Positions 1 to 12,862 of a stretch of 64,000 nucleotides of DNA are shown piece by piece. Origin of the DNA: a virus (Duplodnaviria; Heunggongvirae; Uroviricota; Caudoviricetes); IMG/VR virus record IMGVR_UViG_3300021400_000113, positions 40,932 through 104,931 of that record; one strand, 5' to 3'. The translations under genes and the position numbers were made by a program. Below the pieces are notes generated by a model. It saw only the letters and a program-made list of their open reading frames with translations. It made no database searches and was not told the DNA's origin. Every line of letters starts with the position of its first letter. Within the stretch, counting starts at the first letter, position 1.

Positions 1-2
1 TT

Positions 3-140
3 TTTACCTTTGAAGATTCCGACATCAAAAATAATGGATGCCAATGGGATTGGGAAGAATATATTTATTGTCCTGAATGCAAACAACAAAACATTATTCA
101 CTCCCGTAAAATTTATCAAACTTTAAACTTTAAAAAATAA
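3..140 (+). CDS. C-terminal fragment of hypothetical Cys-containing protein (partial at window start)
   Basis: Open frame 3 running from the window edge to TAA at 138-140. Contains a CxxW...CPEC zinc-ribbon-like spacing. Frame 1 is also open to 126. Confidence 0.25.
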   Translation, partial: FTFEDSDIKNNGCQWDWEEYIYCPECKQQNIIHSRKIYQTLNFKK

Positions 141-144
141 TTGT

Positions 145-173
145 TTGACTAAATGTTAAAATTATGTTATAAT
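145..173 (+). promoter_or_regulatory. conserved phage promoter copy (-35 TTGACT, 17 nt, -10 TATAAT)
   Basis: ttgact at 145-150 and tataat at 168-173, 17-nt spacer. Matches the repeated consensus. Confidence 0.5.
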
Positions 174-260
174 TTTAATGTAAGTAGGAAAGAAAAAACC
201 AAGAACGAAATCTTATTTCAAGACTAATATGATACCAGAATTAGGAGGAAGAAAATAAAG

Positions 261-401
261 ATGAACGAACTTGACGATTTTCTTTGTAATCCTAGCTATG
301 AAGAACTTGAAGAAGAATTTGAAGCTTGGCTTCAACTTCAAAATCAGGTAGAAGTTAAATACTTGACTCAAAATAAAAATTGTGATATAATAAATATGTA
401 A
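261..401 (+). CDS. small acidic hypothetical protein (46 aa)
   Basis: AGGAGG at 244-249, ATG at 261, TAA at 399-401. The 3' end overlaps a promoter copy. Confidence 0.3.
   Translation: MNELDDFLCNPSYEELEEEFEAWLQLQNQVEVKYLTQNKNCDIINM
363..391 (+). promoter_or_regulatory. conserved phage promoter copy
   Basis: ttgact at 363-368 and TGtgaTATAAT at 386-391, followed by aaatatgtaaag. Precedes tRNA-Ala. Confidence 0.55.
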
Positions 402-408
402 AGTGAAT

Positions 409-483
409 GGGGCATTCGTTCACTCGGTAGGACACGACCCTTGCAAGGTTGAAAAATCGGATCGTAACCGATATGCTCCACCA
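409..483 (+). tRNA. tRNA-Ala (anticodon TGC)
   Basis: Acceptor ggggcat pairs with atgctcc. Anticodon stem cgacc/ggttg, loop cttgcaa. T-arm atcgg-atcgtaa-ccgat. CCA is encoded. Confidence 0.5.
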
Positions 484-608
484 GAGGCCGCGAGGATGAC
501 TGGGCGACGGCAATAAGCGGAGTCATGACCGCATCGCTTTCCCGAGATACTAATAGCATCAACTCGTTAAAGGTTGAAATAGAACCGTAATATGGATGCT
601 ATACGCGT

Positions 609-681
609 GCGCGCTTAGCTCAGTTGGCAGAGCGCTTCGTTTACACCGAAGAAGTCAGCAGTTCAAATCTGTTAGTGCGCA
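609..681 (+). tRNA. tRNA-Val (anticodon TAC)
   Basis: Acceptor gcgcgct pairs with agtgcgc. D-arm tagctcagttggcagagc. Anticodon stem cttcg/cgaag, loop tttacac. T-loop ttcaaat. Confidence 0.6.
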
Positions 682-795
682 TTATAGACTCTCACAGCAA
701 ACAAACACATTCAGTGTCGTGGGTTCGATTCCCATCTTATGCGCAATAGCACGAGTAGCTCAGAGGGTAGAGTATGAAATTAGAGAGTCTAGTTA

Positions 796-825
796 TTTGA
801 CTTAAAATGAAAATTATGATATAAT
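796..825 (+). promoter_or_regulatory. conserved phage promoter copy
   Basis: ttgact at 796-801 and tgaTATAAT at 820-825, followed by aaatatgtaagaaag. Drives the tRNA-Met gene and the GC-rich island. Confidence 0.55.
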
Positions 826-858
826 AAATATGTAAGAAAGAGATAATATTTCCTTCAT

Positions 859-934
859 CGCGGACAGGACAAGCGGTTAAGTCATGGGCCTCATAAGCCT
901 CAAGGACTGGGTTCGACTCCCAGGCCCGCGACCA
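859..934 (+). tRNA. tRNA with CAT anticodon (Met, fMet or Ile-lysidine type)
   Basis: Acceptor cgcggac pairs with gcccgcg with one mismatch. Anticodon loop ctcataa. T-arm ctggg-ttcgact-cccag. CCA is encoded. Confidence 0.45.
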
Positions 935-2047
935 GCCTCTGCCGATGGGGCAATGAAACTAAATCGGTCGATTAAAGTGAAAGACGTTGGCGAACGAAAC
1001 GTTAGGGCGAAAAGGTAGGAACTGGTATGTTCGGGTTCGAATCCCGACGGAGGCAAGGGCGCATACTCCGAACCCTGATGCACTTAGAGTCTAGCCCGCT
1101 CGAAGGTGGCAACTGGAGAGCGTAACCGCACATCGTTCGCGGTATATAAATATGCGGTGTCGGCAAGCAGGGCCAAACTGCTGCAGCTCTGGTAGTCAGG
1201 CAGAGAACTAGAGGCTCCCTAGCATAAATAGAAGGAGTGACGAGGAAGTTACGCAGTTATGGCACTGCGTCTAATCCACCCAGACCAATTGGTCATGTTT
1301 TAAGACATAGAGGTAGGAGAAATTAAATGAGTCGCGCTAATAGACCGCAAGTTCGCAATAGTCTGTTTAGGAAACGCAGTTGAAAAGATACTAAGCGCCT
1401 ATTGGTGCCCAAATGCCGTAGTTAGCGTGTAAGTTTTGAAAGACTAAGACTGAGAAGCTTTAGGTCGCGCGCTAGGAAGAATGGGTTAAATGGAGTTTGA
1501 AGAACAGCCAAGTCCAAACAGTAAGGACATAAAAGAAGGAATGTGAGTTCCCGCCACGCTCAGAGTTGATGGTGCGCTACACTTCGGAAATGGGAAGTGG
1601 GGATGGACGAAGACCAGATTGAGATAGATATACAAACAATGCGCGAAAACAGGCTTGAATGTATGTAGGCCACCTCAAAAGTCATGGCTGAAAAACGGGA
1701 TGGAAGGAAACGAGTTCTCTTGTCCTTACCCAGGTTAAAACCTCGGAAAAGCGATTAATAGTAGTCGCACCCGTCACATTGCGTAGGCCAATTGAGCAGC
1801 AATGCGGTAATACCAGTGCACTGGTAGCAAAGTTACCCTGGCTCCCCAGAGTTTGGGCGCAACCTGGGTTATCAAACGCCTATATGCCCGCATCGAATAA
1901 TTGGTTAGTTCGTCACCCTTTCAAGGTGAAAATTCCGGATCGTTCCCGGATGTGGGTGCCATTACAGGCGGCACGAGTCTGTATAAAGAAACGTGTTCTT
2001 CTCTTCGGGACGACGAAGACCAGGTGAGGTAGTCAGGCTCGCCATAT

Positions 2048-2124
2048 GACCCCATAGTTCAGCTGGTTAGAATACGGCGCTGTCACCGCCGAGATCGCGG
2101 GATCATAACCCGCTGGGGCCGCCA
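2048..2124 (+). tRNA. tRNA-Asp (anticodon GTC)
   Basis: Anticodon stem cggcg/cgccg, loop ctgtcac. D-arm tagttcagctggttagaa. 3' end ctggggcc-g-cca. Acceptor has one mismatch and the T-loop is atypical. Confidence 0.5.
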
Positions 2125-2560
2125 TTCGCATCGCCTCCTTTACGATGCAAGTCTGCGGAAAATACGGATTCTCACTAACCTACGGGTAGCGCCCGCTTGC
2201 GGCTTAGCAGCAGACTATAATAAAAAGACAGGCGAAGTAAGTGACGCCCGACCCCAACAGCAGGGCGTTATAAGCGAGACACGAATCTATAAATATTGAG
2301 GCTAGCTTTATCAATATTATAGTGTTGGGACGTATGTGGCAACCAGTAAGCGCCCGAAATGCTTACGTGAGAGACATCTTATAGCTTATGGAGACGTCCC
2401 TATAATGATGTATAGCTTAGAGTGCTATTTGTCGCGCCATTTAGATGGGTCAGCAATGTTTCTTAATCGTCTGCAACACGAGAGATATGGGTTCGATTCC
2501 CGTCCAGGAAACTGGTAGCTTAATGGAAAAAGCGTTATTATAAGTCCATCTAGTTTTTAT

Positions 2561-2589
2561 TTGACTTTTTCCTAAATTTATAGTATAAT
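2561..2589 (+). promoter_or_regulatory. conserved phage promoter copy
   Basis: ttgact at 2561-2566 and tagTATAAT at 2584-2589, followed by taatacataagaaagg. Confidence 0.5.
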
Positions 2590-2621
2590 TAATACATAAG
2601 AAAGGAAAAATTCCTTTCTGT

Positions 2622-2744
2622 GGCCGATTCGCCAAGTGGTTTGGCAGGTGGCTGGTTGGATAGAATTAGTCCTAGCTAGGTGTAAGACCTAGATCCAGCA
2701 CAATTAACCACCCCAGGGGAGTTCAATTCTCTCATCGGCCGCCA
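2622..2744 (+). tRNA. tRNA-like gene with ~50-nt insert enclosed by the anticodon stem (candidate intron-containing tRNA)
   Basis: Perfect 7-bp acceptor ggccgat/atcggcc with encoded CCA. Class-II-like D-arm gccaagtggtttggc. ggtgg...ccacc encloses about 57 nt. T-arm gggag-ttcaatt-ctctc. Confidence 0.3.
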
Positions 2745-2820
2745 GCCTGAGCAAATGTGGAAAGTCGTATGTGCGGTTGGCTGACCTTAAAGCTAATTAC
2801 AATTTATGAGGTATACCGAA

Positions 2821-3354
2821 ATGATAAGACTAAAAATTCTACCCCCTTGGACAATTTTAGTCCGTAAATTAGAAGCTTTACTTGACGGTGATCCACAGAT
2901 TGCTTTTAATGTCAATTTTAGTGGGGAACATCCTACCGTTGCACTTTCTTGTAATAACGGAGATAAAGTTGCGGCTTTATAGCAAATTTTGCCTGAACAA
3001 ATTTTTTTTGGTAATGTAACATTGAAAATTATGATTGATGGTACTCCAAGTAATCGCGCTTTTACAAGTAAGGTTGAACTATTTGATACAGCGTTTAAGG
3101 GTAATCCAGCATATGCATATTCTGTATGTCCTGCTGAAGAAGGTTATCAGTGGATCGGCACAACTTATGTTGTATTTAATAATTGCGTAGTACAGTTCGC
3201 TGCGGACAACCTAAACGATTGTCATGGTATTATTAGTACTCTATATCAAGATATTGCGGATGAAATTCTAACTGGCCCAGCAACAGAAGGTGTTTTCTAT
3301 AATACTAATGTTGAGCGCGCGAATCTTGGTAAACCTCTTGGCGAATGGCCATAA
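2821..3354 (+). CDS. hypothetical protein; contains one in-frame TAG (2980-2982)
   Basis: ATG at 2821 is in the same frame as ORF 2989-3354 and separated from it only by TAG. Ends with TAA. Confidence 0.4.
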
Positions 3355-3487
3355 TTAATTAAAATTTAAGACCTGTCAGCTAATTTTCTTTTGCTTAGGG
3401 AGCACGGTGTCGATGGTTCGAGTCCATCTCTTCGCATAGCGAAGATAGCTCAGTCGGTAGAGCACGTATATAGCGGGTCTTGTATTC

Positions 3488-3565
3488 CGGGCAGTAGCGC
3501 AGTTGGTTAGTCGCGCGAACCTGATAAGTTCGAGGTCGGTGGTTCAAGTCCACCCTGCCCGACCA
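3488..3565 (+). tRNA. tRNA-Ile (anticodon GAT)
   Basis: Acceptor cgggcag/ctgcccg. Anticodon stem cgaac/gttcg, loop ctgataa. T-arm ggtgg-ttcaagt-ccacc. CCA is encoded. Confidence 0.6.
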
Positions 3566-3618
3566 CTCTCGTAAGAGACCACTTTCATGCCCTAGCCTAT
3601 TGGGTTAAGTAGGCAAAT

Positions 3619-3692
3619 GCGGTATTGGTATAGCGGCTGTGCCCTGGCCTTCCAAGCCGGTGACGCGGGTTCAAGCCCCGCATATCGCTCCA
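3619..3692 (+). tRNA. tRNA-Gly (anticodon TCC)
   Basis: Acceptor gcggtat/atatcgc. Anticodon stem ctggc/gccgg, loop cttccaa. T-arm gcggg-ttcaagc-cccgc. CCA is encoded. Confidence 0.55.
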
Positions 3693-4109
3693 TGGCCTTA
3701 GACGGGTCAAACGATGTAGGCTTTTTCCCAGCTCATTGGGTTAAGTGAGCATTAAGAGACTTGCCCACGCCTCTTAATAATGCGTACCAGGGAAGCACGT
3801 GGCTACAACGGTTAATAGTAGCAATATGGCGAGGTAGACCAATTTGGCAGAGTCAAGAGACTTTAGTAAAATTGAGCACTAAATAGGAAACTATTTATGT
3901 GAATCGCGTCAAATTCGGTGAAACTCCTTACAGGACAATACCGAGCGAAGCCTTTTAGGAACGTGTAGAGACTTGACGGCGCGCACCTAAACAGAAATGT
4001 ATGGTGAAGATAAAGTCCAGACTACAACGCTATTGCGGCCATAGTAATATGGAGTAGTAAGAAAATCTCTGTAGTGTGGGTTCGAATCCCATCCTCGCTA
4101 CCATTTATG

Positions 4110-4185
4110 TCCTCGTAACAGAATTGGCATATGTATTCGGCTCAAACCCGAAGTTCTGTGGGTCCGACTCCCACCGAGGATACCA
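4110..4185 (+). tRNA. class-I tRNA with CAA anticodon (Leu codon UUG; short variable loop)
   Basis: Acceptor gtcctcg/cgaggat with a G-U pair. Anticodon stem ttcgg/ccgaa, loop ctcaaac. T-arm gtggg-tccgact-cccac. CCA is encoded. Confidence 0.45.
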
Positions 4186-4186
4186 T

Positions 4187-4264
4187 GTCCAGTTGGCGCA
4201 ATTTGGCAGACGCGCATGGTTTAGGCCCATGTTTTTGAAGGTTCAAATCCTTTACTGGACACCA
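4187..4264 (+). tRNA. class-I tRNA with TAG anticodon (reads CUA; short variable loop)
   Basis: Perfect acceptor gtccagt/actggac. Anticodon stem catgg/ccatg, loop tttaggc. T-arm gaagg-ttcaaat-ccttt. CCA is encoded. Confidence 0.5.
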
Positions 4265-4420
4265 TTCAAATATTTAGTGGCGGAATATGTAGACGCAGAA
4301 AATACGAACAAGTCAGTCCAACATTCTAGTCATGAATAGAACCACGGTCTGCCGGACATAGGAAATACTTGCAGCTTAGTAATAGGCGAACCTGTGTGGT
4401 GAAAATCCACACCTAAATAT

Positions 4421-4446
4421 TTGACTTTCTTCAAAATTATATATAG
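4421..4446 (+). promoter_or_regulatory. variant promoter copy
   Basis: ttgactttcttcaaaattatatata. Weaker -10. Precedes the small ORF at 4458-4631. Confidence 0.3.
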
Positions 4447-4457
4447 AGGAAAGTAAA

Positions 4458-4631
4458 ATGAATAAAAAAGAAATTATTCAAAAAATTTATAAAGAGTATG
4501 GAAAAGAAAATATAAAATTTTTAACAATAGAAATAGATGAAGATAACCAAAAGGAATACTATGTTCATTATTTAGTCTTAGATGATATTAAATGGATAAG
4601 TCATACAGAATATTTTCCAATTAATATTTGA
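4458..4631 (+). CDS. small hypothetical protein (57 aa)
   Basis: RBS agagga, ATG at 4458, TGA at 4629-4631. Confidence 0.4.
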   Translation: MNKKEIIQKIYKEYGKENIKFLTIEIDEDNQKEYYVHYLVLDDIKWISHTEYFPINI

Positions 4632-4656
4632 CTTTTCTTCAAAATTATTGTATAAT
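4628..4656 (+). promoter_or_regulatory. conserved phage promoter copy
   Basis: ttgact at 4628-4633 and tgtataat at 4649-4656, followed by aattatgtaagaaag. Confidence 0.5.
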
Positions 4657-4683
4657 AATTATGTAAGAAAGAAAGAAGGGAGA

Positions 4684-4905
4684 ATGAAAATGAACCCATT
4701 AAGTTATAAACTTGGCACAAAATTCTCCGGAAAAATTCTTAATGATTGGTTATCTGAACAGATTACTAATCATGGTAGTCATGAAAAAATAGCTCAAAAA
4801 ATTGATAAACATTTTATCCTAAAAAATGATAGAAATTATCAATTAGTACAAATGTCATATCGTGATCGTGAAGAAAAAAGTTTAGGATTTATGAAGGTGG
4901 AATAA
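4684..4905 (+). CDS. hypothetical protein
   Basis: RBS aagggag then ATG at 4684 (MKMNPL...). Stop TAA. Confidence 0.45.
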   Translation: MKMNPLSYKLGTKFSGKILNDWLSEQITNHGSHEKIAQKIDKHFILKNDRNYQLVQMSYRDREEKSLGFMKVE

Positions 4906-4906
4906 A

Positions 4907-5092
4907 ATGGCAATTTTAATTAAAGGCGTATCTAAATATAATAAAGATTGTTATAATTGTCCTTTTAATGATTCAAATTGCTGGTGTAATATCACTAAAA
5001 GTGAAATAGATCGTGATGATTATACCACAGAAGCTCCATGTCCAATTATTGAAATACCAGATTCAATACTTGACTTTTTCCAAAATTCATGA
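4907..5092 (+). CDS. small Cys-rich hypothetical protein
   Basis: ORF with multiple Cys residues (CYNCPF...CWC). The 3' end runs into a promoter copy. Confidence 0.45.
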   Translation: MAILIKGVSKYNKDCYNCPFNDSNCWCNITKSEIDRDDYTTEAPCPIIEIPDSILDFFQNS

Positions 5093-5098
5093 TATAAT
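5070..5098 (+). promoter_or_regulatory. conserved phage promoter copy
   Basis: ttgact at 5070-5075 and tgatataat at 5090-5098, followed by aaatatgtaagaaagg. Drives GC-rich non-coding island 5116-5700. Confidence 0.55.
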
Positions 5099-5732
5099 AA
5101 ATATGTAAGAAAGGAAAACGAAATGTAAAAGACATTTTGTTTAGCAATTATGAACCAAGTGAAGATGTGCTAACCACACAGCTTGGGATACTTGAATAAC
5201 AGCCATACACTACGGCCCGGGATACTAGGCAAGTGCGGCCGCGAAACTAGTAATAGTTAGCGATAGTGGAGAAACTCCAAATGTTAAGAGTATGCGCCAA
5301 GTAATTTGCTTGAAAATGCACGATTCCTTACGGCGACATAATAGGAAGCCAGGTTAAGAGCCAGGCCAAATCCAGATAAGGTATTGGGGTGGTAGCCAAT
5401 ACAAACTCTGGAAAAACCACAAGTCGCTATGTCGATGAAAGCCAGAAATGGCATATAAGTAAGGTTTGCGGTTGGAGTAGCCCAATTTGACAGTAATTCT
5501 AATAATATTTGATACAGATATTGAAGATGCTGAATGGTTTGGGTGAAACTTAGAGGTAAGCAATCCTCTCTATTCTCGGCGCTTGGCGTGGGAATCGGAT
5601 GGTATAAGGTCGCTACTTATACCACAGCCCGGTTTTCAATAGTAGCATAATATTCAAGAAGAATTATGAGGTACGGCGAAGGTCGCAGTAATTGTTAAAC
5701 AAAGTGTCTTTTATATTGAAAAAGGATATAAA

Positions 5733-5948
5733 ATGAAAGCTAAATGTATCAAATGTAAAACAGTTTGGGAATATGAAGCAAATGAAATGAAAGTTGAACT
5801 AAATGGAACAGGATTAATTATAGCTTTATATTGTCCGAAATGTCATAAACAGTTTTATGGATGCAATCCAAATGAACTTGCTTTAAGTGTAACGCCTGTT
5901 TCTGTTGATCATAAAATTGAACGTAAGGCAAAGTATGATTGGGAGTAA
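5733..5948 (+). CDS. small zinc-ribbon protein (CxxC...CxxC)
   Basis: ORF with CIKCK and CPKCH motifs. RBS aaaggatataaaatg. Confidence 0.5.
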   Translation: MKAKCIKCKTVWEYEANEMKVELNGTGLIIALYCPKCHKQFYGCNPNELALSVTPVSVDHKIERKAKYDWE

Positions 5949-5963
5949 ATATAATATTGATAT

Positions 5964-5992
5964 TTGACTTCATTCTAAAATTATGATATAAT
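5964..5992 (+). promoter_or_regulatory. conserved phage promoter copy
   Basis: ttgact at 5964-5969 and tgatataat at 5984-5992, followed by aaatatgt. Sits upstream of a tRNA cluster. Confidence 0.55.
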
Positions 5993-6179
5993 AAATATGT
6001 TGAGAACGTGGGACATATAAGTTATATGGAGTTAAGGCGCCACCACGAACAGTACTATATGCGGCGATTCTCAACATTAACTAAACGTGAAGGGAACAAG
6101 TTACCTTAGAAGACTTGCGCGTCAAGTGGACCTGTAACGGGAGGAGAAGGTCGTAAATATTCTCCCTCCGCCATTTAAT

Positions 6180-6258
6180 GCCCTATTAGCTCAGCGGAAT
6201 AGAGCACCGCGCTACGGACGCGGGTTTGTCAGGCGTTCAAATCGTCTATAGGGCACCA
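6180..6258 (+). tRNA. tRNA-Arg (anticodon ACG)
   Basis: Perfect acceptor gccctat/atagggc. D-arm gctcagcggaatagagc. Anticodon stem ccgcg/cgcgg, loop ctacgga. T-loop ttcaaat. CCA is encoded. Confidence 0.65.
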
Positions 6259-6332
6259 TTAACGACGATTACAGCAATAGTTTTAACAATAAATTAGGGA
6301 TTTATTTAGTTAGAAATCGTCGTGTTATTTAT

Positions 6333-6423
6333 GCGTCGGTGTGGCTAGTGGCGAAGCCAGCAGACTGTAAATCTGCTCCCCTCAGGGTAAACATCGTAGG
6401 TTCAACTCCTACTCGGCGCACCA
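6333..6423 (+). tRNA. tRNA-Tyr (anticodon GTA), class II with long variable arm
   Basis: Acceptor gcgtcgg/tcggcgc. Anticodon stem gcaga/tctgc, loop ctgtaaa. Variable arm cccctcaggg. T-arm gtagg-ttcaact-cctac. CCA is encoded. Confidence 0.55.
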
Positions 6424-6504
6424 ATAGTGTTGCGAGCTTAGTCGCAGGAAAGTTACTACCCTAAGGCAACCGTTGTGAGTTTGGTGTTCAAAACTCTCAT
6501 ATGG

Positions 6505-6632
6505 GCGAGTAGCCAAGTGGTCAAAGGCATTGGAACCATAAATGAATCTAGTGACTAAGGTTCTAACAGCTACTTAATGGACTGTAAATCCAAGGCGAAA
6601 GCTACGCAGGTTCAAATCCTGTCCTCGCCCAT
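6505..6632 (+). tRNA. tRNA-like gene with ~50-nt insert inside the anticodon stem (terminal loop ctgtaaa, GTA)
   Basis: Perfect acceptor gggcgag/ctcgccc. Class-II D-arm gccaagtggtcaaaggc. ttgga...tccaa encloses about 58 nt. T-arm has ttcaaat. Confidence 0.35.
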
Positions 6633-6637
6633 TACAA

Positions 6638-6727
6638 AGGGGAGTGGTGTAACGGCAACACGCAGGTCTCTAAAACCTGGGCCTTCTGAGGGCGTCATTC
6701 TCGGTTCAAATCCGAGCTCCCCCGCCA
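6638..6727 (+). tRNA. amber suppressor tRNA (anticodon CTA, reads UAG), with a long variable region
   Basis: Perfect anticodon stem caggt/acctg with 7-nt loop ctctaaa, giving U33-CUA-A37. D-stem gtgt/acac. T-arm ctcgg-ttcaaat-ccgag. 3' end ctccccc-g-cca. Variable region is about 20 nt. Confidence 0.6.
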
Positions 6728-6826
6728 ATTATAGACCATTTCTGCAAATAATTAATGGATAAAGAAAATTTCTGTAAAAAATTTTTGAATAGGTTCGATT
6801 CCTATAAATTTCAAATGGTCTAGTTC

Positions 6827-6899
<73 letters not shown>

Positions 6900-7034
6900 T
6901 TAAATCACATTAGATAAAAGTACGATCAATAAAATAGTCTATATCCTTCGTTGACGCTATAAGGGTAATTAATGAAAAGTCAATTACTGTGGATAGGTTC
7001 CATTTGGAGAATCGGGAGAATGGATGTGATTTAT

Positions 7035-7107
7035 GCGCGTGTAGCTCAGTTGGTAGAGCACGTGACTTTTAATCACGGTGTCGAGAGTTCAATTCTCTCC
7101 ACGCGCA
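7035..7107 (+). tRNA. tRNA-Lys (anticodon TTT)
   Basis: Perfect acceptor gcgcgtg/cacgcgc. D-arm tagctcagttggtagagc. Anticodon stem cgtga/tcacg, loop cttttaa. T-arm gagag-ttcaatt-ctctc. Confidence 0.7.
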
Positions 7108-7129
7108 CTAATTTGAAAGGAGTATTAAA

Positions 7130-7456
7130 ATGAATACTATACTAGGTAAAATTACTAATGTAAGATTTGGTTTTATTCCGGACTATCCGTTTCTTTTTGG
7201 AATTGATTTTGATTTTTCTCTTGGAGACGGTAGTGGTATTGGCTCTGGCGGAAAATATACTGTTAATATCAGTAAAGACTGTAAATGGAGCGCGGAAGAA
7301 CGTAAAGAAGCGATTGAAAGTTCAATTGACTTCATCGTTAAAATTTTAAAAGATGCTAAAGTAGATAATGTATATGATCTTAAAAATAAGCCAGTAGAAG
7401 TATATATTCAAGATAATACTTTTGTCAATTTTAGAATTTTAACAGAAGTTCTATAA
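7130..7456 (+). CDS. hypothetical protein
   Basis: ORF with RBS aaaggag. Gly-rich segment GDGSGIGSGG. Confidence 0.5.
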   Translation: MNTILGKITNVRFGFIPDYPFLFGIDFDFSLGDGSGIGSGGKYTVNISKDCKWSAEERKEAIESSIDFIVKILKDAKVDNVYDLKNKPVEVYIQDNTFVNFRILTEVL

Positions 7457-7474
7457 CATAAAGGAGTATATGAT

Positions 7475-7843
7475 ATGACTGTTCAGGAAGTAGTTTGGTT
7501 CATGAATCATAAATACGGTGAACAAGCATATGTTGTAGAAACAAAGGAAGAAATTTTATTGTTCTCATTAAAATCAAAATGGATTATTAAAAAATCTGAT
7601 TTTAAACACTTTCATACTTATACTCTATTTCATTTTAACGATATTGAACGTGAACATTATCATGTTCAATTAAAATCTCAAAATTTAGATTATCTCGTAT
7701 ACCAAGCAATCGCACACGATAATGAAAAAATTCCATATTCTAATAATGATTGGAAACAATTTAATGAAATGTGGAATATGTATTTATTAGGTAGAGAAAT
7801 TGAAGGACGTGCGGCAGCTTGGGATTGGTTATGTGGTCGGTAG
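7475..7843 (+). CDS. hypothetical protein (terminates at TAG; see rejected notes)
   Basis: ORF with RBS aaggag. The only stop before the tRNA cluster is TAG at 7841-7843. Confidence 0.45.
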   Translation: MTVQEVVWFMNHKYGEQAYVVETKEEILLFSLKSKWIIKKSDFKHFHTYTLFHFNDIEREHYHVQLKSQNLDYLVYQAIAHDNEKIPYSNNDWKQFNEMWNMYLLGREIEGRAAAWDWLCGR

Positions 7844-7904
7844 TTTAACGGTAAAACCTCGGATTGTGGCTCCGAAGACGCAGGTTCAACTCCTGTCCTT
7901 CCAA
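7833..7904 (+). tRNA. tRNA-His (anticodon GTG) with G-1; imperfect acceptor
   Basis: Perfect anticodon stem tcgga/tccga with loop ttgtggc. D-stem gttt/aaac. T-arm gcagg-ttcaact-cctgt. Acceptor tggtcgg/ccttcca has 2 central mismatches. Confidence 0.45.
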
Positions 7905-7905
7905 T

Positions 7906-7976
7906 GCAGGTATAGTATAGTGGTAATACATCACCTTGCCAAGGTGAAATCGCGGGTTCAAATCCCGCTACTTGCT
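7906..7976 (+). tRNA. tRNA-Gly (anticodon GCC)
   Basis: Acceptor gcaggta/tacttgc. Anticodon stem tcacc/ggtga, loop ttgccaa. T-arm gcggg-ttcaaat-cccgc. Confidence 0.6.
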
Positions 7977-7982
7977 TATTAT

Positions 7983-8057
7983 GGCATGGTAGCTGAGATG
8001 GATTAGCACTTGACTGAAAATCAAGATAGGTTGGATCGTTACCAACCCATGCCACCA
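7983..8057 (+). tRNA. tRNA-Phe (anticodon GAA)
   Basis: Perfect acceptor ggcatgg/ccatgcc. Anticodon stem cttga/tcaag, loop ctgaaaa. CCA is encoded. T-loop is atypical. Confidence 0.5.
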
Positions 8058-8060
8058 TAT

Positions 8061-8132
8061 AGGTCGGTGGTGCAATTGGTAGCATAGCGGTCTCCAAAAC
8101 CGTTGATTGGGGTTCGAGTCCCTGCCTTCCTG
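8061..8132 (+). tRNA. tRNA-Trp (anticodon CCA); imperfect acceptor
   Basis: Anticodon stem gcggt/accgt, loop ctccaaa. T-arm tgggg-ttcgagt-ccctg. Acceptor aggtcgg/ccttcct has 2 mismatches, the same pattern as tRNA-His. Confidence 0.45.
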
Positions 8133-8136
8133 CTAT

Positions 8137-8208
8137 GCGTCCAATTCTCGTCGGTCGGGAGAGGGTCTGCAAAATCCTTGTTAGTTGGTTCAACTCCAAC
8201 TGGACGCT
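8137..8208 (+). tRNA. tRNA-Cys (anticodon GCA)
   Basis: Perfect acceptor gcgtcca/tggacgc. Anticodon stem agggt/atcct, loop ctgcaaa. T-arm gttgg-ttcaact-ccaac. Confidence 0.55.
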
Positions 8209-8215
8209 TTATTAC

Positions 8216-8244
8216 TTGACTTTTAGTTAAAATTATAGTATAAT
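8216..8244 (+). promoter_or_regulatory. conserved phage promoter copy
   Basis: ttgact at 8216-8221 and tagtataat at 8236-8244, followed by aaatatgtaaagaac. Confidence 0.55.
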
Positions 8245-8263
8245 AAATATGTAAAGAACATGG

Positions 8264-8420
8264 GGTGTGATTAAAGCATCAGGGTAGTTTTCGCTGTACT
8301 TAGAAATAAGTACCGGTTCCGGGCAAACAGGAGCAAGCGTAAGGGTATGAAGCATTTTAATTGCACGCACCGAAGTGGGTCCGCACATCCACTGGGGTTC
8401 AATTCCCCCACACTCCACCA
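8264..8420 (+). ncRNA. ~157-nt RNA with tRNA-like termini (GGGG 5' end, T-arm plus CCA 3' end); long tRNA-like or intron-containing tRNA
   Basis: 5' ggggtgt pairs with 3' acactcc-a-cca. T-arm ctgggg-ttcaatt-cccc. About 85 extra nt in between. Lies directly downstream of a promoter copy. Confidence 0.3.
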
Positions 8421-8484
8421 GGTTCGTCTATGATGCCTTACGTAGACCGTGGGGTACAGACCACGTTAAAATTGCTGTACGTTA

Positions 8485-8560
8485 CGGGGTGTAGCGCAGT
8501 TGGTAGCGTGCTTGATTTGGGATCAAGAAGTCGTGGGTTCAAGTCCCACCACTCCGACCA
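8485..8560 (+). tRNA. tRNA-Pro (anticodon TGG)
   Basis: Acceptor cggggtg/cactccg. D-arm tagcgcagttggtagcg. Anticodon stem cttga/tcaag, loop tttggga. T-arm gtggg-ttcaagt-cccac. CCA is encoded. Confidence 0.6.
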
Positions 8561-8736
8561 GTAACCTTTGAGAATGGGAATATATAAAGGTGTTGCCGCC
8601 GAAGCGGGTCGCGAACCAAATCGGAAAGGAAAATTCTCGTATCCCGGACGAACCACTAGGGAATCTTAAGGAGGTGGCCGCCGTAAGCCCGGTCGTTAAA
8701 GATATACAAATGTTATTGGTATATCTGGCTTATTTT

Positions 8737-8806
8737 GCTTCATTGATGTAATGGCAACATAAGTGTTTCGTAAGCACCATATAGAGGTTCGACTCCCTAT
8801 GAAGCT
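8737..8806 (+). tRNA. tRNA-Thr (anticodon CGT)
   Basis: Perfect acceptor gcttcat/atgaagc. Anticodon stem gtgt/gcac, loop ttcgtaa. T-arm gagg-ttcgact-ccct. Confidence 0.45.
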
Positions 8807-8823
8807 TCAAGAAAGGTGATAAT

Positions 8824-9147
8824 ATGAAAGAAGATCGAAAACCAATCTATCGTATCCTCTTATTTTCAAAAATTCCTACATTAGATAAACTTGGATGGCC
8901 TGATTGTGGTACTCAGGATGACGTAGGTTTTTACTATGAATATGAAACCGCAGTTCGCGCGATGCATGAAAATTGGTGTGATATTCAAGACGGCGGATTA
9001 TTTAAAGCAGGATTTATTTTAACTTCATATCCAGGTTGTTATGATAACGCGACAAAAGATCGTCGTACTTATTTTGAATGGGATGAAGAACGCGGCGGGT
9101 TTTTTGAAAAAGAAGAACCAGAATGTTTTGAACATTTTTCTTATTAA
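8824..9147 (+). CDS. hypothetical protein
   Basis: ORF with RBS aaaggtgataatatg. Confidence 0.5.
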   Translation: MKEDRKPIYRILLFSKIPTLDKLGWPDCGTQDDVGFYYEYETAVRAMHENWCDIQDGGLFKAGFILTSYPGCYDNATKDRRTYFEWDEERGGFFEKEEPECFEHFSY

Positions 9148-9158
9148 GGAGAATTAAT

Positions 9159-9329
9159 ATGATGTATTTATCAGAATTACTAGACCGCCTAGAAGATTTA
9201 CGCATTTCTGACAGCGATTTTTTTGGAAAAGATTATGCTACTCAATGTGCCTATGAAAAAGCAAACGATATGCTTGATGAATGTTTACAAATAGTACAAG
9301 ATTATTTTGGAGAGCATACGTTTGAATGA
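9159..9329 (+). CDS. small hypothetical protein (56 aa)
   Basis: RBS aaggag, ATG at 9159. TGA overlaps the ATG of the next gene. Confidence 0.4.
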   Translation: MMYLSELLDRLEDLRISDSDFFGKDYATQCAYEKANDMLDECLQIVQDYFGEHTFE

Positions 9330-9760
9330 AATTATATACTTCATATTTCGCGCAATTGCGTAATTTTCCACCAAATCTCGTAGGGCTTTCAACTGCGATT
9401 TGGAATCCTAAATGGCTTCAATCTGGACGAGATAAAAATGGAGCAATATGGTTAGATGTGCCTCCTTTAAAACCTGGCCGCGAATGTGATGGCCTTTGCG
9501 CGGGAAAATGTAATCCAAAGCATCCACAAGACTGCGCCTTTCTTAAAGTTTATTATGAACAATTAAAGAAAATAGATTATTTTAAATTTATGAATAAACT
9601 ATTTGATTTACATGATAAAATTTGTGAAAGTGAAGGAATGACTGAATTAGATTTTGCTTTTCTTGTATATGAAACGCCGCAAAATCCTTGTAGTGAACGC
9701 GCAATAATTCAAAAATGGTTTTATGAAAATGGAATGGAAATTGAAGAATGGCATAAATAA
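9326..9760 (+). CDS. hypothetical Cys-containing protein
   Basis: ORF of 144 aa. Start overlaps the upstream stop (ATGA). Confidence 0.5.
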   Translation: MKLYTSYFAQLRNFPPNLVGLSTAIWNPKWLQSGRDKNGAIWLDVPPLKPGRECDGLCAGKCNPKHPQDCAFLKVYYEQLKKIDYFKFMNKLFDLHDKICESEGMTELDFAFLVYETPQNPCSERAIIQKWFYENGMEIEEWHK

Positions 9761-9789
9761 TTGACTTTATTTTAAAATTATGTTATAAT
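9761..9789 (+). promoter_or_regulatory. conserved phage promoter copy
   Basis: ttgact at 9761-9766 and tgttataat at 9781-9789, followed by atatatgtaaaaaag. Confidence 0.55.
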
Positions 9790-9822
9790 ATATATGTAAA
9801 AAAGAAGAGGAGAAAAAAGAAG

Positions 9823-10011
9823 ATGGATGAAAACAAAAACGCTACTTTAAATTTTAATTTTTACCCTGACGACTATCCCGATGTAGATCTAAGTTTTCAT
9901 TGCAGTGAGGACCTAGATATGGCTGAACTGGTAGACTACTTTAAGCGATTTGTTTATGCAATAGGCTTTGCGCCCGGTACTGTTGAGAAATATCTTAGCG
10001 AGGATTATTAA
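9823..10011 (+). CDS. small acidic hypothetical protein
   Basis: ORF with RBS aagaggag. Confidence 0.4.
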   Translation: MDENKNATLNFNFYPDDYPDVDLSFHCSEDLDMAELVDYFKRFVYAIGFAPGTVEKYLSEDY

Positions 10012-10022
10012 TCCTCCTATAT

Positions 10023-10099
10023 CGGGCATTCGTATATTGGTATGATTACGCCAGTCTTATAAACTGGTCAGGGTGGTCCGATTCCACCATGCCCGACCA
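10023..10099 (+). tRNA. tRNA-Ile (anticodon TAT, AUA-reading type)
   Basis: Perfect acceptor cgggcat/atgcccg. Anticodon stem ccagt/actgg, loop cttataa. T-arm ggtgg-tccgatt-ccacc. CCA is encoded. Confidence 0.5.
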
Positions 10100-10114
10100 T
10101 TAAAGGAGAATACT

Positions 10115-10582
10115 ATGTGGTTTTTAAAGAAAAAAGAAGAACCAATTCAAACCTATGAAGAAAGACCAAAAGAATGCCAACATAAATGGCGTGATTTTGA
10201 TCCAATTATGAAATTTAGTTTTTATCCATATCATGAGAATGAGGATAAAAATAAAAAGGGACAATTAAAAATCAGCATGAAAGAAAGTTATGTTTGCTGT
10301 TTATGCTTAGATCGTGAAGATAGAACTTTGTGCTCTTGGGTTTTTGAAAATTTAACTCAAGAGGAAGCATATAAAAAAGTTCAAGACTTCAAAAAAGAAT
10401 ATGAAGGATTTTATAAGCCAGAAGCTAAAATTGAGGATGAAATTCTTGATATGCAATATAATATTGATCGTGAATTTTTACGCAATTTAGCTTTATATCA
10501 TCCCGAAAAGGTTGGTTCTAGTTTTCAATCTATCACTCGTGTTCCTACACTTTCTGAATTTAAAGGTGATAAAAATGCTTAA
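10115..10582 (+). CDS. hypothetical protein
   Basis: RBS aaaggag then ATG at 10115 (MWFLKKKEE...). The upstream part of ORF 10073 overlaps a tRNA. Confidence 0.5.
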   Translation: MWFLKKKEEPIQTYEERPKECQHKWRDFDPIMKFSFYPYHENEDKNKKGQLKISMKESYVCCLCLDREDRTLCSWVFENLTQEEAYKKVQDFKKEYEGFYKPEAKIEDEILDMQYNIDREFLRNLALYHPEKVGSSFQSITRVPTLSEFKGDKNA

Positions 10583-10889
10583 TTATAATTATAATAGCGC
10601 AGAAGGATGGCGGTGTCCCCATTGTGGCGCAGTAATGGCTCCTTGGTAGCCTTCTTGTATTAATTGTACTGGCAAGAGTTAGAGACCAATAGAATATCAT
10701 ACTGCTGCTCCAAATATTACTATTCAATCTGGTAAAACTAACGCAACTCCTAACACTATTACTTGGGCTAGTTCATTAGATAATTGTATTACCACTGATA
10801 AAACTATAAATTGTACTTTAACTTCAAACACTATAACTGCTCAAGATAAATTACGTACAACTTTAAAATCTGCTGGAATTGATATTTGA
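10575..10889 (+). CDS. zinc-ribbon protein (CPHCG...CINCTG) with two in-frame TAGs
   Basis: ATG at 10575 overlaps the upstream stop. Frame stays open through 2 TAG codons to TGA at 10887-10889. Confidence 0.35.
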
Positions 10890-10914
10890 CTTTTATAAAA
10901 AATTATATTATAAT
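10886..10914 (+). promoter_or_regulatory. conserved phage promoter copy
   Basis: ttgact at 10886-10891 and attataat at 10907-10914, followed by atatatgtaaagaaaag. Drives GC-rich island 11040-11640 and downstream tRNAs. Confidence 0.5.
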
Positions 10915-11650
10915 ATATATGTAAAGAAAAGAGAAAGGAAAGGTGATTGATATGCGTAAAACTCGTCGTATTGTGTTTTCTTCCTCTTGGAGTCGTGCTC
11001 GTCAGGCTAAAGAAATTGATGAGTGGCAGATTTAAGCGCTTCATCTCAGATAGATGAGATGCGAAATTGCGGCCAATCGCTATACGGCGCTACCGTTAAT
11101 ACCCTTCTAACGCCTCTCGTAGAAGCGCACCACTAGAAGGTTTATCACCCGGGTATTGTGATGTAGGACATAGGGCCTACGGTTGTATGAAACAACGATA
11201 AAAATTCATAGCGAGAAGATGTCATCAGTAAATGAACTTGATGTGCATCCTCACAAATTGCGGCCAAATTGCATCGCTACCGTATCTTGCCTATTAAGTA
11301 GGTCGGCCGCTGAAAGATAGGAAGAAACCGCTAATTGATTATGTTCCTGCGGTATATAAAAAGAACGTAATTCGCGAAGAGAAGATTCTTAGAACGGAAC
11401 ACTTCATACCCCGAGCGTGGTAAAATAAAGTCCTCTAAGACGTAGCGCGGTATATAGCGGTCGCAACAGCGTGAGAGTAAAATAAAAACGCTAACAACAT
11501 GTTGGGGTTTACGGTGTAAAAATCCCCGCTATGGCGAAAAACCGTTTCCTTTGTAAGTGGCTAAGCCGATAGCCCATACATTGTGCGGTTTGTATAATAG
11601 TTATATAGATAAAGTATAGTGTCGCCGCAACATTATACATCGGCTTATAT

Positions 11651-11741
11651 GGGGAGGTACCCAAGTGGTTTAAGGGGGCTGCCTACTAAGCAGTTAGGCT
11701 AGGTAACTAGCGCGTGGGTTCAAATCCCACCCTCCCCGCCA
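11651..11741 (+). tRNA. class-II (Ser-like) tRNA with ACT anticodon
   Basis: Perfect acceptor ggggagg/cctcccc. D-arm cccaagtggtttaaggg. Anticodon stem gctgc/gcagt, loop ctactaa. Variable arm gctaggtaactagc. T-loop ttcaaat. CCA is encoded. Confidence 0.45.
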
Positions 11742-11742
11742 T

Positions 11743-11816
11743 GGGCGAGTAACCGAATTGGCATAGGTACCAGACTAAGAATCTGGGTTTTGAGGGTTCA
11801 ACTCCCTCTTTGCCCA
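11743..11816 (+). tRNA. tRNA with AAG anticodon (reads CUU; short variable loop)
   Basis: Acceptor gggcgag/tttgccc with G-U pairs. Anticodon stem ccaga/tctgg, loop ctaagaa. T-arm gaggg-ttcaact-ccctc. Confidence 0.4.
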
Positions 11817-11821
11817 TTTAT

Positions 11822-11896
11822 AGGCGAGTAGTCTAACGGTTTATTGGACATGCGGCTTTGACCCGCAGTGAGGTGGTTCGACTCCACCCTCGCCTG
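11822..11896 (+). tRNA. tRNA-Gln (anticodon TTG)
   Basis: Perfect acceptor aggcgag/ctcgcct. Anticodon stem tgcgg/ccgca, loop ctttgac. T-arm ggtgg-ttcgact-ccacc. Confidence 0.6.
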
Positions 11897-11971
11897 CTAA
11901 CGACTCTTACAGCAATTATTATAACCGCCATTTAATTTATATACAAGGTTAAGTATAGAGAGTCTAGATAT

Positions 11972-12161
11972 GCCGCCGTGGCTCAATGGTAGAGCAGCGC
12001 ACTTGTCAAGTTAGTTTAAGAGTAAAACACCCGAATCACAGGGATAAGACCGTATTAACTAATTAATTGACGAATTAATTAGGCGAAGATATGTAAGCTC
12101 AATACTTACACTTGGCTCCAGTAATGCGCAGGTTACAGGTTCAAGTCCTGCCGGCGGCTCC
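11972..12161 (+). tRNA. tRNA gene interrupted by a ~115-nt insertion in the anticodon loop (candidate intron-containing tRNA, possible TGT anticodon)
   Basis: Perfect acceptor gccgccg/cggcggc with CCA. D-arm gctcaatggtagagc. Anticodon stem 5' gcgca and loop start cttgtca at 11997-12008. Matching tgcgc lies at 12124-12128. T-arm cagg-ttcaagt-cctg follows. Confidence 0.45.
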
Positions 12162-12431
12162 AAGCGTTTAGGCGATATCGCTCTGAGAACAACCACCCAG
12201 GCAGTGAGGGGAGATAAGATATTCGCGAACAAGAGCTCCTTAGCCCTCACAATTAAGACAGGCTTTTCGGGTTAACACAGCAAATTATTTCCGAAGTAGT
12301 ATAAAGGTAGTACACTGTGAATAAAACCTCAGAGATTTCGGTTCGAATCCGAACCCCCTGTCTGTCTTGGAATTGCGGTTGAAATCTTCGGATGAAACCT
12401 GTCCCGGAGGATGCGTCCAAAGGGATTTTAT

Positions 12432-12517
12432 GGGCAGATGGCCGAGTGGCTTAAGGCGGCGGTCTTGAAAACCGTTGACGTGATGAACGTCCGTGGGTTC
12501 AAATCCTACTCTGCCCG
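12432..12517 (+). tRNA. tRNA-Ser (anticodon TGA), class II
   Basis: Perfect acceptor gggcaga/tctgccc. D-arm gccgagtggcttaaggc. Anticodon stem gcggt/accgt, loop cttgaaa. Variable arm gacgtgatgaacgtc. T-loop ttcaaat. Confidence 0.65.
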
Positions 12518-12536
12518 CTAATTATATATAAAGGAA

Positions 12537-12815: not shown

Positions 12816-12831
12816 TCCTCCTCTTTTTTTT
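12802..12831 (+). terminator. rho-independent terminator
   Basis: Hairpin aggaggatgaataatcctcct followed by a T-run. Confidence 0.5.
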
Positions 12832-12833
12832 AT

Positions 12834-12862
12834 TTGACTTTTTTTATAATTTATTATATAAT
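12834..12862 (+). promoter_or_regulatory. conserved phage promoter copy
   Basis: ttgact at 12834-12839 and tatataat ending at 12862, 17-nt spacer. Confidence 0.45.

Follow-up and report, generated by a model that had tools for sequence, protein, structure and literature searches.

GC-rich islands in a phage tRNA array

The window analyzed here, a stretch of 64,000 nucleotides (nt) corresponding to positions 40,932 to 104,931 of the IMG/VR virus record IMGVR_UViG_3300021400_000113 (Caudoviricetes), is part of the AT-rich genome of a large uncultivated phage with 34% GC overall. Its first 12.5 kb are a tRNA array, + strand throughout, in which a preliminary description had pointed out five GC-rich islands as promoter-driven, non-coding segments. 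We analyzed these islands and in particular island 1 (841-2040), which is laid out as a promoter, tRNA-Met(CAU), about 950 nt of RNA domains denoted A to G, tRNA-Glu(UUC) and tRNA-Asp. As a comparison set, we used 59 related loci from IMG/VR, labelled with an L and a number, as are further contigs with domain C. In IMG/VR, 59 viral contigs, the longest of 193 kb, encode relatives of a small open reading frame (ORF) in the array, 2989-3351, with 63-93% amino-acid identity. The features of island 1 are as follows.

797-835, + strand: sigma-70-type promoter (TTGACT-N17-TATAAT with ATATGTAA) heading the island-1 operon, 0 mismatches to the pattern
859-934, + strand: tRNA-Met(CAU), 43.5 bits with the Rfam tRNA model (gathering score 29) and called by ARAGORN at a relaxed threshold
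935-1125, + strand: domain A, about 190 nt, with the core AGGGCGAAAAGG, a three-way junction with a T-arm-like hairpin, CCCTGATGCACTTAGAGTCTAGCC and a terminal hairpin
1126-1212, + strand: domain B, with the hairpin CCGC...GCGG, UAUAUAA, a probable pseudoknot and two hairpins
1213-1314, + strand: linker particular to the window, to which blastn and nhmmer matched nothing in the fetched loci
1325-1368, + strand: domain C, an H-type pseudoknot with S1 GCG/CGC, S2 of 7 bp and the loop GCAAGUUCGCAAUAG
1399-1527, + strand: domain D, with the stem GCCCA (1407-1411)/UGGGU (1482-1486), a variable hairpin region inside it and the near-invariant tail GAAUGGGUUAAAUGGAGUUUGAAGAACAGCC
1569-1632, + strand: domain E, the hairpin CACUUCGGAAAUGGGAAGUG in a conserved 58-nt unit
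1677-1791, + strand: domain F, multi-branch, with P1 GGCU (1686-1689)/GGCC (1786-1789), GAAAAA, and P2 CGGGA/CCCG around three hairpins
1792-1876, + strand: domain G, a conserved unit with the hairpin ACCAGUGCACUGGU
1886-1961, + strand: tRNA-Glu(UUC), called by ARAGORN and Rfam, closing the domain string
1962-2047, + strand: spacer before tRNA-Asp(GUC) (2048-2124), with no relatives in the loci compared

Default ARAGORN called 25 tRNAs in the array, including a CUA suppressor at 6638-6727, and further tRNAs came from Rfam and intron-tolerant ARAGORN; tRNA-Met(CAU) at 859-934 was not among the default calls. The GC fractions of the five segments were 0.49 (841-2040), 0.44 (3700-4060), 0.42 (5116-5700), 0.50 (8560-8700) and 0.43 (11040-11640), compared with 0.325 for 13001-64000 and 0.25-0.37 for the small ORFs embedded in the array, and all five fall within the single-strand tRNA array. 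The GC enrichment is therefore real, although the 50-55% initially estimated is reached only in parts of islands 1 and 4. None of the five segments holds a credible ORF under any stop-codon reassignment. Within 932-1885, the longest stop-free run was 84 codons in the standard code. Reading TAG as sense raises it to 97, and whichever single stop is reassigned it stays at or below 125, in agreement with the earlier view that no credible ORF appears even with TAG as sense. The segments are nevertheless not pure spacer, since they include tRNA-Met (859-934), tRNA-Glu (1886-1961) and, in 3700-4060, tRNA-Leu(UAA). As for the phage itself, TAG appears to be recoded, and an in-frame TAG at 2980-2982 that links two ORFs (2806-3354) and the long-arm suppressor tRNA(CUA) at 6638-6727 are consistent with this.

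The window has 17 copies of the promoter pattern TTGACT-N17-TATAAT-nnAnATGTAA where 0.01 would be expected; every copy is on the + strand, and 11 of the 17 lie within the first 13 kb. The copy at 797-835 has 11 of 12 hexamer matches and a TG extension, and no terminator-like site was found on the + strand over 797-2560. A promoter directly 5' of each segment had been claimed. This holds for island 1 (797-835) and for the ROOL RNA of island 3 (5070-5108) but not for the others: islands 2 and 4 come after tRNAs, with no promoter near island 2 and with 340 nt and two RNA genes separating island 4 from the promoter at 8216, and in island 5 a small ORF comes between the promoter at 10886 and the segment. 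Considering that the promoter claim is true for only two islands and that tRNAs had been overlooked, the earlier observation is borne out in part.

RNA domains A, B and D to G

The domain families were defined by iterated nhmmer searches against the 59 loci. The similarity of 935-1885 to its relatives comes as separate blocks, each found in a different subset of loci. Each of the families A to G is single-copy in the window, and the domains are 44-190 nt in length. When 925-1890 was searched alone against Rfam at E<=10 with lax filters, no family matched, and neither ARAGORN nor the Rfam models called a tRNA, transfer-messenger RNA (tmRNA) or RNase P RNA gene in 935-1885, so that the suggested RNase P-like or tmRNA-like RNA finds no evidence there. 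Among self-cleaving ribozymes (hammerhead, twister, pistol, hatchet and HDV-like), the Rfam models gave nothing in the window at gathering score, nothing in 1-13000 at E<=1 and nothing in 925-1890 at E<=10. A to G are thus RNA families without a counterpart in Rfam 15, and covariation support is clear for A, C and F.

Domain A starts directly after the CCA of tRNA-Met, which precedes it in most relatives also. Its first part of about 60 nt, read from the upstream sequence of the relatives, is a run of hairpins whose sequence differs while the place is kept (CCAG/CUGG, CACCGA/UUGGUG, ACAUC/GAUGU and ACGUU/AACGU; covariation by eye). The core at 1003-1124 was found by nhmmer in 16 loci, and RNAalifold gave 30 consensus pairs, 9 of which (9/30) are compensatory. 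The T-arm-like hairpin GGGTTCGAATCCC at 1034-1050, which appears as GGGUUCGAAUCCC in the covariation alignment, sits inside the three-way junction. Domain A is restricted to the clade. An exact 31-nt search with the T-arm region found nothing, and pattern matches in protein-coding sequence of other environments were inspected and discarded as chance. A 'tRNA-Pro with intron' at 935-1055, proposed by relaxed ARAGORN only, is implausible, its T-arm belonging to domain A.

In the case of domain B, 1126-1205 was found in 16 loci with consensus hairpins and a gap of 1-2 nt to A. Pairing of its loop with downstream sequence (ACAUCG with CGGUGU), noted by eye only, makes a pseudoknot probable. The domain B motif GCGGTATATA at 1139 recurs at 11349 and 11447, with 0.09 occurrences expected.

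Domain D (1404-1521 by nhmmer) was found in 21 loci, that is, in 21 contigs of the clade only. Its alignment (A3) shows unrelated hairpins of other lengths in place of the insert, with the flanking stem and a 31-nt tail invariant; the support for its structure is weaker than for A, C and F. A peptide read from AUGGAGUUUGAAGAACAGCC (MEFEEQP...) was considered and rejected: frame-shifting indels occur while the downstream nucleotides stay conserved, and such indels in conserved sequence mean that domain D is not a peptide. A side observation concerns the tail. A small hairpin occurs twice in the array, at 3591-3615 and 3727-3751, with the identical loop UUGGGUUAAG and covarying stems (GCCUA/UAGGC and GCUCA/UGAGC), and UGGGUUAA is common to these loops and to the invariant tail of D. 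A complement of UGGGUUAA was sought in the window, and none was found.

Domain E (1570-1626) was found in 9 loci and has a fold z-score of -2.05; in relatives it stands before B or between D and F. Domain F (1681-1788) gave 31 copies in 26 loci and is confined to the clade, where it was found in 22 contigs. In its alignment (A1), 6 of the 11 predicted pairs are compensatory. P1 changes from GGCU/GGCC to AGGU/GCCU or CUGAC/GUCAG, P2 from CGGGA/CCCG to CGAGA/CUCG, CGGAA/UCCG or CAGGA/CCUG, and the 3' junction reads UCACAYAGUGUAG. Many of the pairs in F are U-G, which would be mismatched if read on the opposite strand; such G-U pairs in the helices of A, C and F are compatible with the + strand only. 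Domain G (1795-1849) was found in 6 loci, where the relatives sit elsewhere in their arrays. Covariation was not obtained formally for B, E and G, the sequences of G being too few. A shared 5' tag, GGUGC, was rejected as a common cleavage signal because it occurs too few times.

Domain C is found beyond the clade

In the 59 loci, nhmmer found 23 copies of domain C (1326-1366). In the full motif, the pseudoknot is preceded by the tract UAUAAAAAGGUG and, 5' of that, by a hairpin whose loop AUACA(U)GAC is conserved. The copy in the window keeps the pseudoknot, carries AAAUGAG against AAAGGUG in the family with two otherwise invariant positions changed, and is without the 5' hairpin. In an alignment of 20 clade copies (A2), 98% of the cells were paired and 7 of 10 pairs were compensatory. 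None of 500 shuffles reached the score of this alignment, and the slid controls were all at most 37% paired. With an extended alignment of 25 diverse copies (A5), 95.7% of the cells were paired and 11 of 15 pairs were compensatory.

A scan with a degenerate pattern placed domain C in more than 120 IMG/VR viral contigs at least, many of them phages of 20-40 kb unrelated to the clade. Among the matches listed, 107 of 134 copies (80%) lie within 200 nt of a same-strand tRNA, compared with 7.4% of random positions in the same loci, and in 13 of the 74 distinct sequence contexts with a downstream tRNA the searched core ends 12-15 nt before it. Domain C adjoins the tRNA even in single-tRNA phages. 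It is preceded by an A-rich tract and is usually single-copy; in relatives it is at most duplicated, in tandem with a 60-nt period. Rfam gave no family, and no ribozyme either, for the canonical copy (L072) or for the copies of two other loci. Searches against 50,697 GenBank phages returned no match for canonical domain C or, by blastn, for 841-2040, and as such no cultured model phage was found. In bacteria, 7 matches were obtained among about 185,000 species genomes, mostly on short contigs of metagenome-assembled genomes (MAGs) of gut and rumen Bacillota. No type III toxin-antitoxin layout, in which a tandem array would lie upstream of a toxin gene, was seen around C; its neighbours are tRNAs.

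Two contigs with domain C showed further features. The neighbours of C in L068 include tRNA-Thr, phosphoesterase and terminase genes: at 3033-4090, this 40-kb phage carries a DUF1492 regulator, tRNA-Thr, C with a terminator-like hairpin, a metallophosphoesterase, terminase and portal, which is a second co-occurrence of the domain C RNA with a phosphoesterase gene. L079, another viral contig with C, carries in its tRNA array a tmRNA at 1385-1704 with the tag ANEYRMAA* and a suppressor tRNA with a UUA anticodon at 2220-2295.

Order and separability of the domains

The relatives that carry the domains are uncultivated phages of about 130-190 kb. Their usual order is tRNA-Met, A, B, C, (C'), D, (E), (a partial F'), F and then tRNA-Glu or tRNA-Thr, which lies 33-36 nt 3' of domain F. 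Several loci depart from this order: E and F are parted by a tRNA in L010 and L015, E stands before B in L025 and L041, and F stands before C in L009, L022 and L055. B or C alone lies 6-8 nt before tRNA-Glu in L013, L027 and L049, and fragments of D lie just before tRNA-Leu in L006 and L024. Every tested domain has a local closing stem, and no long-range pairing between domains was seen. Since the domains occur singly beside other tRNAs, they are separable units and not one giant RNA of the GOLLD type; together with their self-closing folds and their membership in families of their own, this points to a cassette array of small structured RNAs in a preferred order. The main segment had been put forward as one large structured non-coding RNA, and the differing combinations of domains in relatives make that proposal the less good reading.

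Islands 2 to 5

A structured non-coding RNA was assigned by Rfam in two of the remaining islands, namely a ROOL RNA and a group I ribozyme intron, as the preliminary description had anticipated in general terms; its interpretation is accordingly supported in part. The features are as follows.

3828-4103, + strand: tRNA-Leu(UAA) split by a 198-nt group I intron, the core of island 2 (ARAGORN -i, Leu(taa) i(37,198))
5070-5108, + strand: promoter copy of ROOL, with the ROOL start about 25 nt 3' of it
5131-5705, + strand: full-length ROOL RNA (island 3), RF03087 with 323.3 bits (gathering score 99.1), model positions 1-574/574
8561-8736, + strand: island 4, a GC-rich spacer between tRNA-Pro and tRNA-Thr(CGU), no family match
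11035-11650, + strand: island 5, with two related units, an abiF-like hairpin at 11104-11140 and two GCGGTATATA units

The Rfam model Intron_gpI (RF00028) covers 3854-4038 with 58.3 bits (gathering score 50). The intron is inserted after U34, the first anticodon base, and the flanking exons form the tRNA. ROOL was found in relatives as well, and the hairpin GGTATAAGGTCGCTACTTATACC is a conserved stem of this RNA. Of the recurring motifs reported before, GCGGTATATA (1139, 11349 and 11447) and AAATTGCGGCCAA (11064 and 11255) were recovered near the places given, but the hairpin GGTATAAGGTCGCTACTTATACC lies at 5601 and not at 5613.

Island 4 had no Rfam match at E<=5 and no relatives in the fetched loci. 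Island 5 contains related units of the form AAATTGCGGCCAA...CGCTACCGT at 11064 and 11255, and only 11065-11155 has relatives (3-4 loci). Permissive Rfam searches of island 5, and of island 4 with a tRNA-like element, gave chance-level matches only, the abiF-like hairpin at 11104-11140 scoring 26.9 bits, below the gathering score of 37 (RF03085). In the arrays of relatives, abiF RNA exceeds the gathering score (L057 5450-5486, 44.2 bits; L051 10524-10568, 37.8 bits), as do drum RNA (L034 6411-6504 and L038 6134-6227) and group I introns.

Several other elements of the array were noted. The GC-rich spacers 484-607, 2125-2560 and 6728-6826, which were outside the earlier list, are conserved in 10-20 related loci and, based on this conservation, probably contain more RNA domains. 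Immediately 3' of the promoter at 8216-8254, a tRNA-like element of about 158 nt (8263-8420) has an acceptor pairing GGGGUGUG/CACACUCC with ACCA, a T-arm and a long internal insert; it has relatives in L014 and L024 and received no call from ARAGORN or Rfam. A trailer, TAACGAC..TTACAGCAAT, is conserved directly 3' of tRNA-Arg and tRNA-Gln (6260-6287 and 11898-11925), with a similar string after tRNA-Val at 683, and may be a 3' processing signal. Three tRNAs of the window (2622-2744, 6503-6631 and 11972-12162) bear inserts in or next to the anticodon loop, of 49 nt in Thr(GGU), 47 nt in Tyr(GUA) and 116 nt in Thr(UGU). Inserts range from 44 to 116 nt overall, sizes too small for group I introns, and those of 44-86 nt are seen in many relatives. 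For the precursor of Thr(GGU), folding gives a cloverleaf whose anticodon arm is extended (z -2.4).

RNA-repair genes after the array and tRNA-like elements within it

A set of RNA-repair genes lies just after the array.

12890-13357: Pnkp-like AAA_33 kinase
13621-14241: metallophosphoesterase
19606-20787: DUF2828+DUF7788 protein
21414-22259: RlaP nucleotidyltransferase
26219-27442: RNA ligase related to DRB0094

Together with the short tRNA inserts, the kinase, phosphoesterase and RNA ligase genes raise the question of enzyme-mediated tRNA splicing in the phage. The DUF2828+DUF7788 protein has a weak vWA match and no sequence match in PDB. Homologues are present in 703 phage records, where they are annotated as 'DUF2828' and once as 'RNA-binding protein', and the protein is possibly Ro60-like. 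The literature on DUF2828 and TROVE offered nothing useful. An unusual phage cargo, the ORF 14626-15186, matches the formate/nitrite transporter family (E 4.5e-19).

Three elements, 698-802, 2484-2533 and 3404-3468, have the order T-arm, closed acceptor stem, D-arm. With the YrlA model (RF02553), they score 35.1, 25.6 and 35.0 bits, respectively, all below the gathering score of 69; the element at 698-802 has a local E of 1.8e-6. In the YrlA alignment, the tRNA-like part fits and the Ro-binding stem fits poorly. No YrlA match was found inside 935-1885.

Interpretation and alternatives

We propose that the islands are non-tRNA cargo of phage tRNA operons, of several kinds, and that 935-1885 is a cassette array of small structured RNAs, which we consider the probable explanation, though far from a settled one. 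The RNAs are non-coding, encoded on the + strand, conserved and linked to tRNAs; they belong to no catalogued family, and A, C and F have compensatory pairs. The promoter at 797-835 would drive a precursor through tRNA-Met, the domain string, tRNA-Glu and tRNA-Asp, in keeping with the lack of a terminator-like site on the + strand there. RNase P and 3'-end processing enzymes would then excise the flanking tRNAs, by which the ends of the string, and perhaps single domains, would be freed, and the products may act in trans during infection as stable RNAs. The likeliest arena would be phage-host conflict at the RNA level (tRNA cleavage, repair, RNA quality control), where the RNAs could be decoys or protein partners. 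This role is a guess at the level of a theme, not of a mechanism, and is suggested by the surroundings of the RNAs, where replacement tRNAs, ROOL, Y-RNA-like elements and RNA-repair enzymes occur together with RNA motifs that, in bacteria, go with particular protein genes.

Several points weigh against a cassette array. Its co-transcription, processing and stability are all deduced from sequence, and neither a protein partner nor a toxin was found for the domains A to G. The relatives come from one clade, so that some compensatory changes are inherited and not independent events, and the thermodynamic signal is weak for B and G. The minimum free energy of the whole 954-nt stretch is no better than that of shuffles (z -0.42), a value that is uninformative either way. 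The copy of C in the window, mutated and without its 5' hairpin, may be decaying, and islands 4 and 5 are almost without relatives. Moreover, neighbouring domains are often 1-4 nt apart, usually with no tRNA from A to F, and a single long RNA with many domains is just as conceivable as the mature product. In that case, 935-1885 would correspond in function to GOLLD or ROOL, having tRNA-Met and tRNA-Glu as its borders and variable linkers between cooperating domains. Most relatives keep the order A-B-C-D-F from tRNA-Met to tRNA-Glu or tRNA-Thr, short gaps are common and a tRNA inside the string unusual, and the total size is 600-1050 nt; GOLLD also has a variable 5' region, linker tRNAs and one case downstream of tRNA-Met (PMC12286853). 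However, the tested domains close locally with no pairing from one to another, they occur singly, reordered or split by tRNAs (L010 and L015), C is found in more than 120 unrelated smaller phages at least without the other domains, and there was no GOLLD or ROOL match at E<=10. Taken all together, we regard a single large RNA as unlikely.

The domains might also be cis-acting folds of the precursor that guide or protect tRNA processing and have no existence after cleavage. The close spacing to tRNAs fits this idea, namely the C core 12-15 nt before the tRNA 5' end in 13 contexts and 80% of C within 200 nt of a tRNA among the matches listed, as do the ends of F 33-36 nt before tRNA-Glu or tRNA-Thr in many loci and the conserved trailers after tRNA-Arg and tRNA-Gln. 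It is harder to reconcile with invariant loops and junctions, pseudoknots and multi-way junctions, folds which, to our knowledge, far exceed the needs of bacterial pre-tRNA spacers. About 950 nt would be a large cargo for two flanking tRNAs, and the C of small phages comes after a lone tRNA and has a terminator-like hairpin of its own, so that a role confined to the precursor seems quite improbable. A further proposal takes some domains, C foremost, as decoys that mimic RNA antitoxins or partner RNAs of host abortive infection, ToxI-like, alongside replacement tRNAs. Phage-encoded pseudo-ToxI is reportedly such an escape route, in work of Blower and colleagues from 2012. Domain C, a pseudoknot of about 44 nt after an A-rich tract and sometimes in tandem at a 60-nt period, resembles such RNAs, and abiF and drum RNA occur in the arrays of relatives, apparently with no partner gene, besides the abiF-like hairpin at 11104-11140; bacterial drum RNAs associate with nearby protein genes (PMC5737381). 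But no bacterial locus pairs C with a toxin gene, the 7 matches in about 185,000 species genomes coming largely from short MAG contigs, C is present as one copy in most cases, and its association with tRNAs is not predicted by mimicry. We therefore give decoys of this kind little credence, less than a role in the precursor.

The remaining explanations, namely protein-coding sequence under an unusual code, decayed tRNA pseudogenes, host-derived DNA or an assembly chimera, are contradicted by the data and have next to no probability. The apparent TAG recoding, the T-arm-like hairpin in A and the dubious 'tRNA-Pro with intron' could be cited in favour of the first two. However, there is no long ORF, conserved regions carry frame-shifting indels, the changes are those of compensatory pairs and not of third codon positions, and 935-1885 has no tRNA matches. 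Host remnants and chimerism had both been raised beforehand. The same domains occur in the same place in dozens of independently assembled phage contigs from different metagenomes and are nearly absent from bacterial genomes, as seen for C, the only widespread domain. Chimerism had been tied to a blank Rfam search and to relatives without these spacers, whereas Rfam matches were found in the islands and the relatives carry the domains.

For the cassette array, a more far-reaching version is that C represents a widespread, undescribed class of phage RNA coupled to tRNAs and that the string from tRNA-Met to tRNA-Glu consists of shuffled cassettes of anti-defence or RNA-repair-partner RNAs. We put this forward tentatively, as a possibility that is more likely wrong than right. 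In such a case, C could process itself, recruit an enzyme or inhibit host defences that target tRNAs, and large phages would shuffle RNA cassettes the way protein anti-defence genes are shuffled.

Two of the five islands are of already known kinds, and the main island adds new RNA families to a niche known for orphan structured RNAs. ROOL and GOLLD are abundant cage-forming RNAs of recent structural interest, and the window suggests that many more RNAs share their niche: one operon holds at least seven families missing from Rfam, three of them with clear covariation, and C is present in more than 100 uncultivated phages, mostly adjacent to tRNAs. More RNAs in phage tRNA islands would not surprise a specialist; the number of families, the cassette-like shuffling and the breadth and tRNA coupling of C are what deserve note. 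As short, testable RNAs in a defined context (a strong promoter, tRNA punctuation and adjacent RNA-repair genes), they offer a handle on the role of non-tRNA RNAs in such operons, and for annotators the 'spacers' of these arrays are genes.

Comparison with known systems

The tRNA-Leu(UAA) group I intron of cyanobacteria and plastids (RF00028) is likewise placed after U34 of the anticodon. In contrast to it, the intron in the window is phage-borne and known from sequence, and relatives have introns of group I size in several other tRNAs. ROOL, first seen in rumen data, and GOLLD are known from phages or prophages near tRNA islands (PMC5737381, PMC12286853). Domains A to G share with ROOL (RF03087) the niche near phage tRNAs and the same promoter type, but they have no sequence or structure similarity to it, 925-1890 giving no ROOL match at E<=10, and they are small separable units where ROOL is a single molecule of about 580 nt containing six multi-stem junctions. 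GOLLD, with its variable 5' and conserved 3' region, possible tRNAs in the linker and a location downstream of tRNA-Met in one instance, is a large RNA cargo of phage tRNA arrays and resembles the string in its niche (PMC12286853). Unlike GOLLD, the domains here occur singly and reordered, with no conserved 3' super-domain joining them, and the GOLLD model of Rfam matched neither 1-13000 at E<=1 nor 925-1890 at E<=10. As for the class of C, Fremin and Bhatt (2023, PMC10690425) catalogued 8,495 structured-RNA candidates predicted from IMG/VR, the data source used here as well; these are RNAs of the same type, some of them tRNA-like. Neither functions nor Rfam family names are given in the catalogue, and C could already be among its candidates.

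YrlA and other bacterial Y RNAs are, like domain A, partly tRNA-like, A having its T-arm-like hairpin in a multi-helix junction. Type III antitoxins consist of tandem short repeats directly upstream of a toxin endoribonuclease gene. Domain C is similar to these RNAs (ToxI, CptI) and to pseudo-ToxI in being a short pseudoknotted unit with an A-rich tract, phage-borne and occasionally in tandem, whereas it has no identified cognate toxin, is usually single-copy and linked to tRNAs, and has an extra 5' hairpin with the loop AUACA(U)GAC. For the way in which A to G are proposed to work, the nearest parallel is the tRNA cluster of phage T4, where two small stable RNAs of about 120-140 nt (species 1 and 2, rnaC and rnaD) lie in the tRNA operon, are co-transcribed with the tRNAs and are excised by the tRNA-processing machinery of the host. 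The likeness is one of organisation, no sequence relationship being expected, and where T4 has two such RNAs, the operon described here has at least seven families, some of them pseudoknotted and shuffled between related phages.

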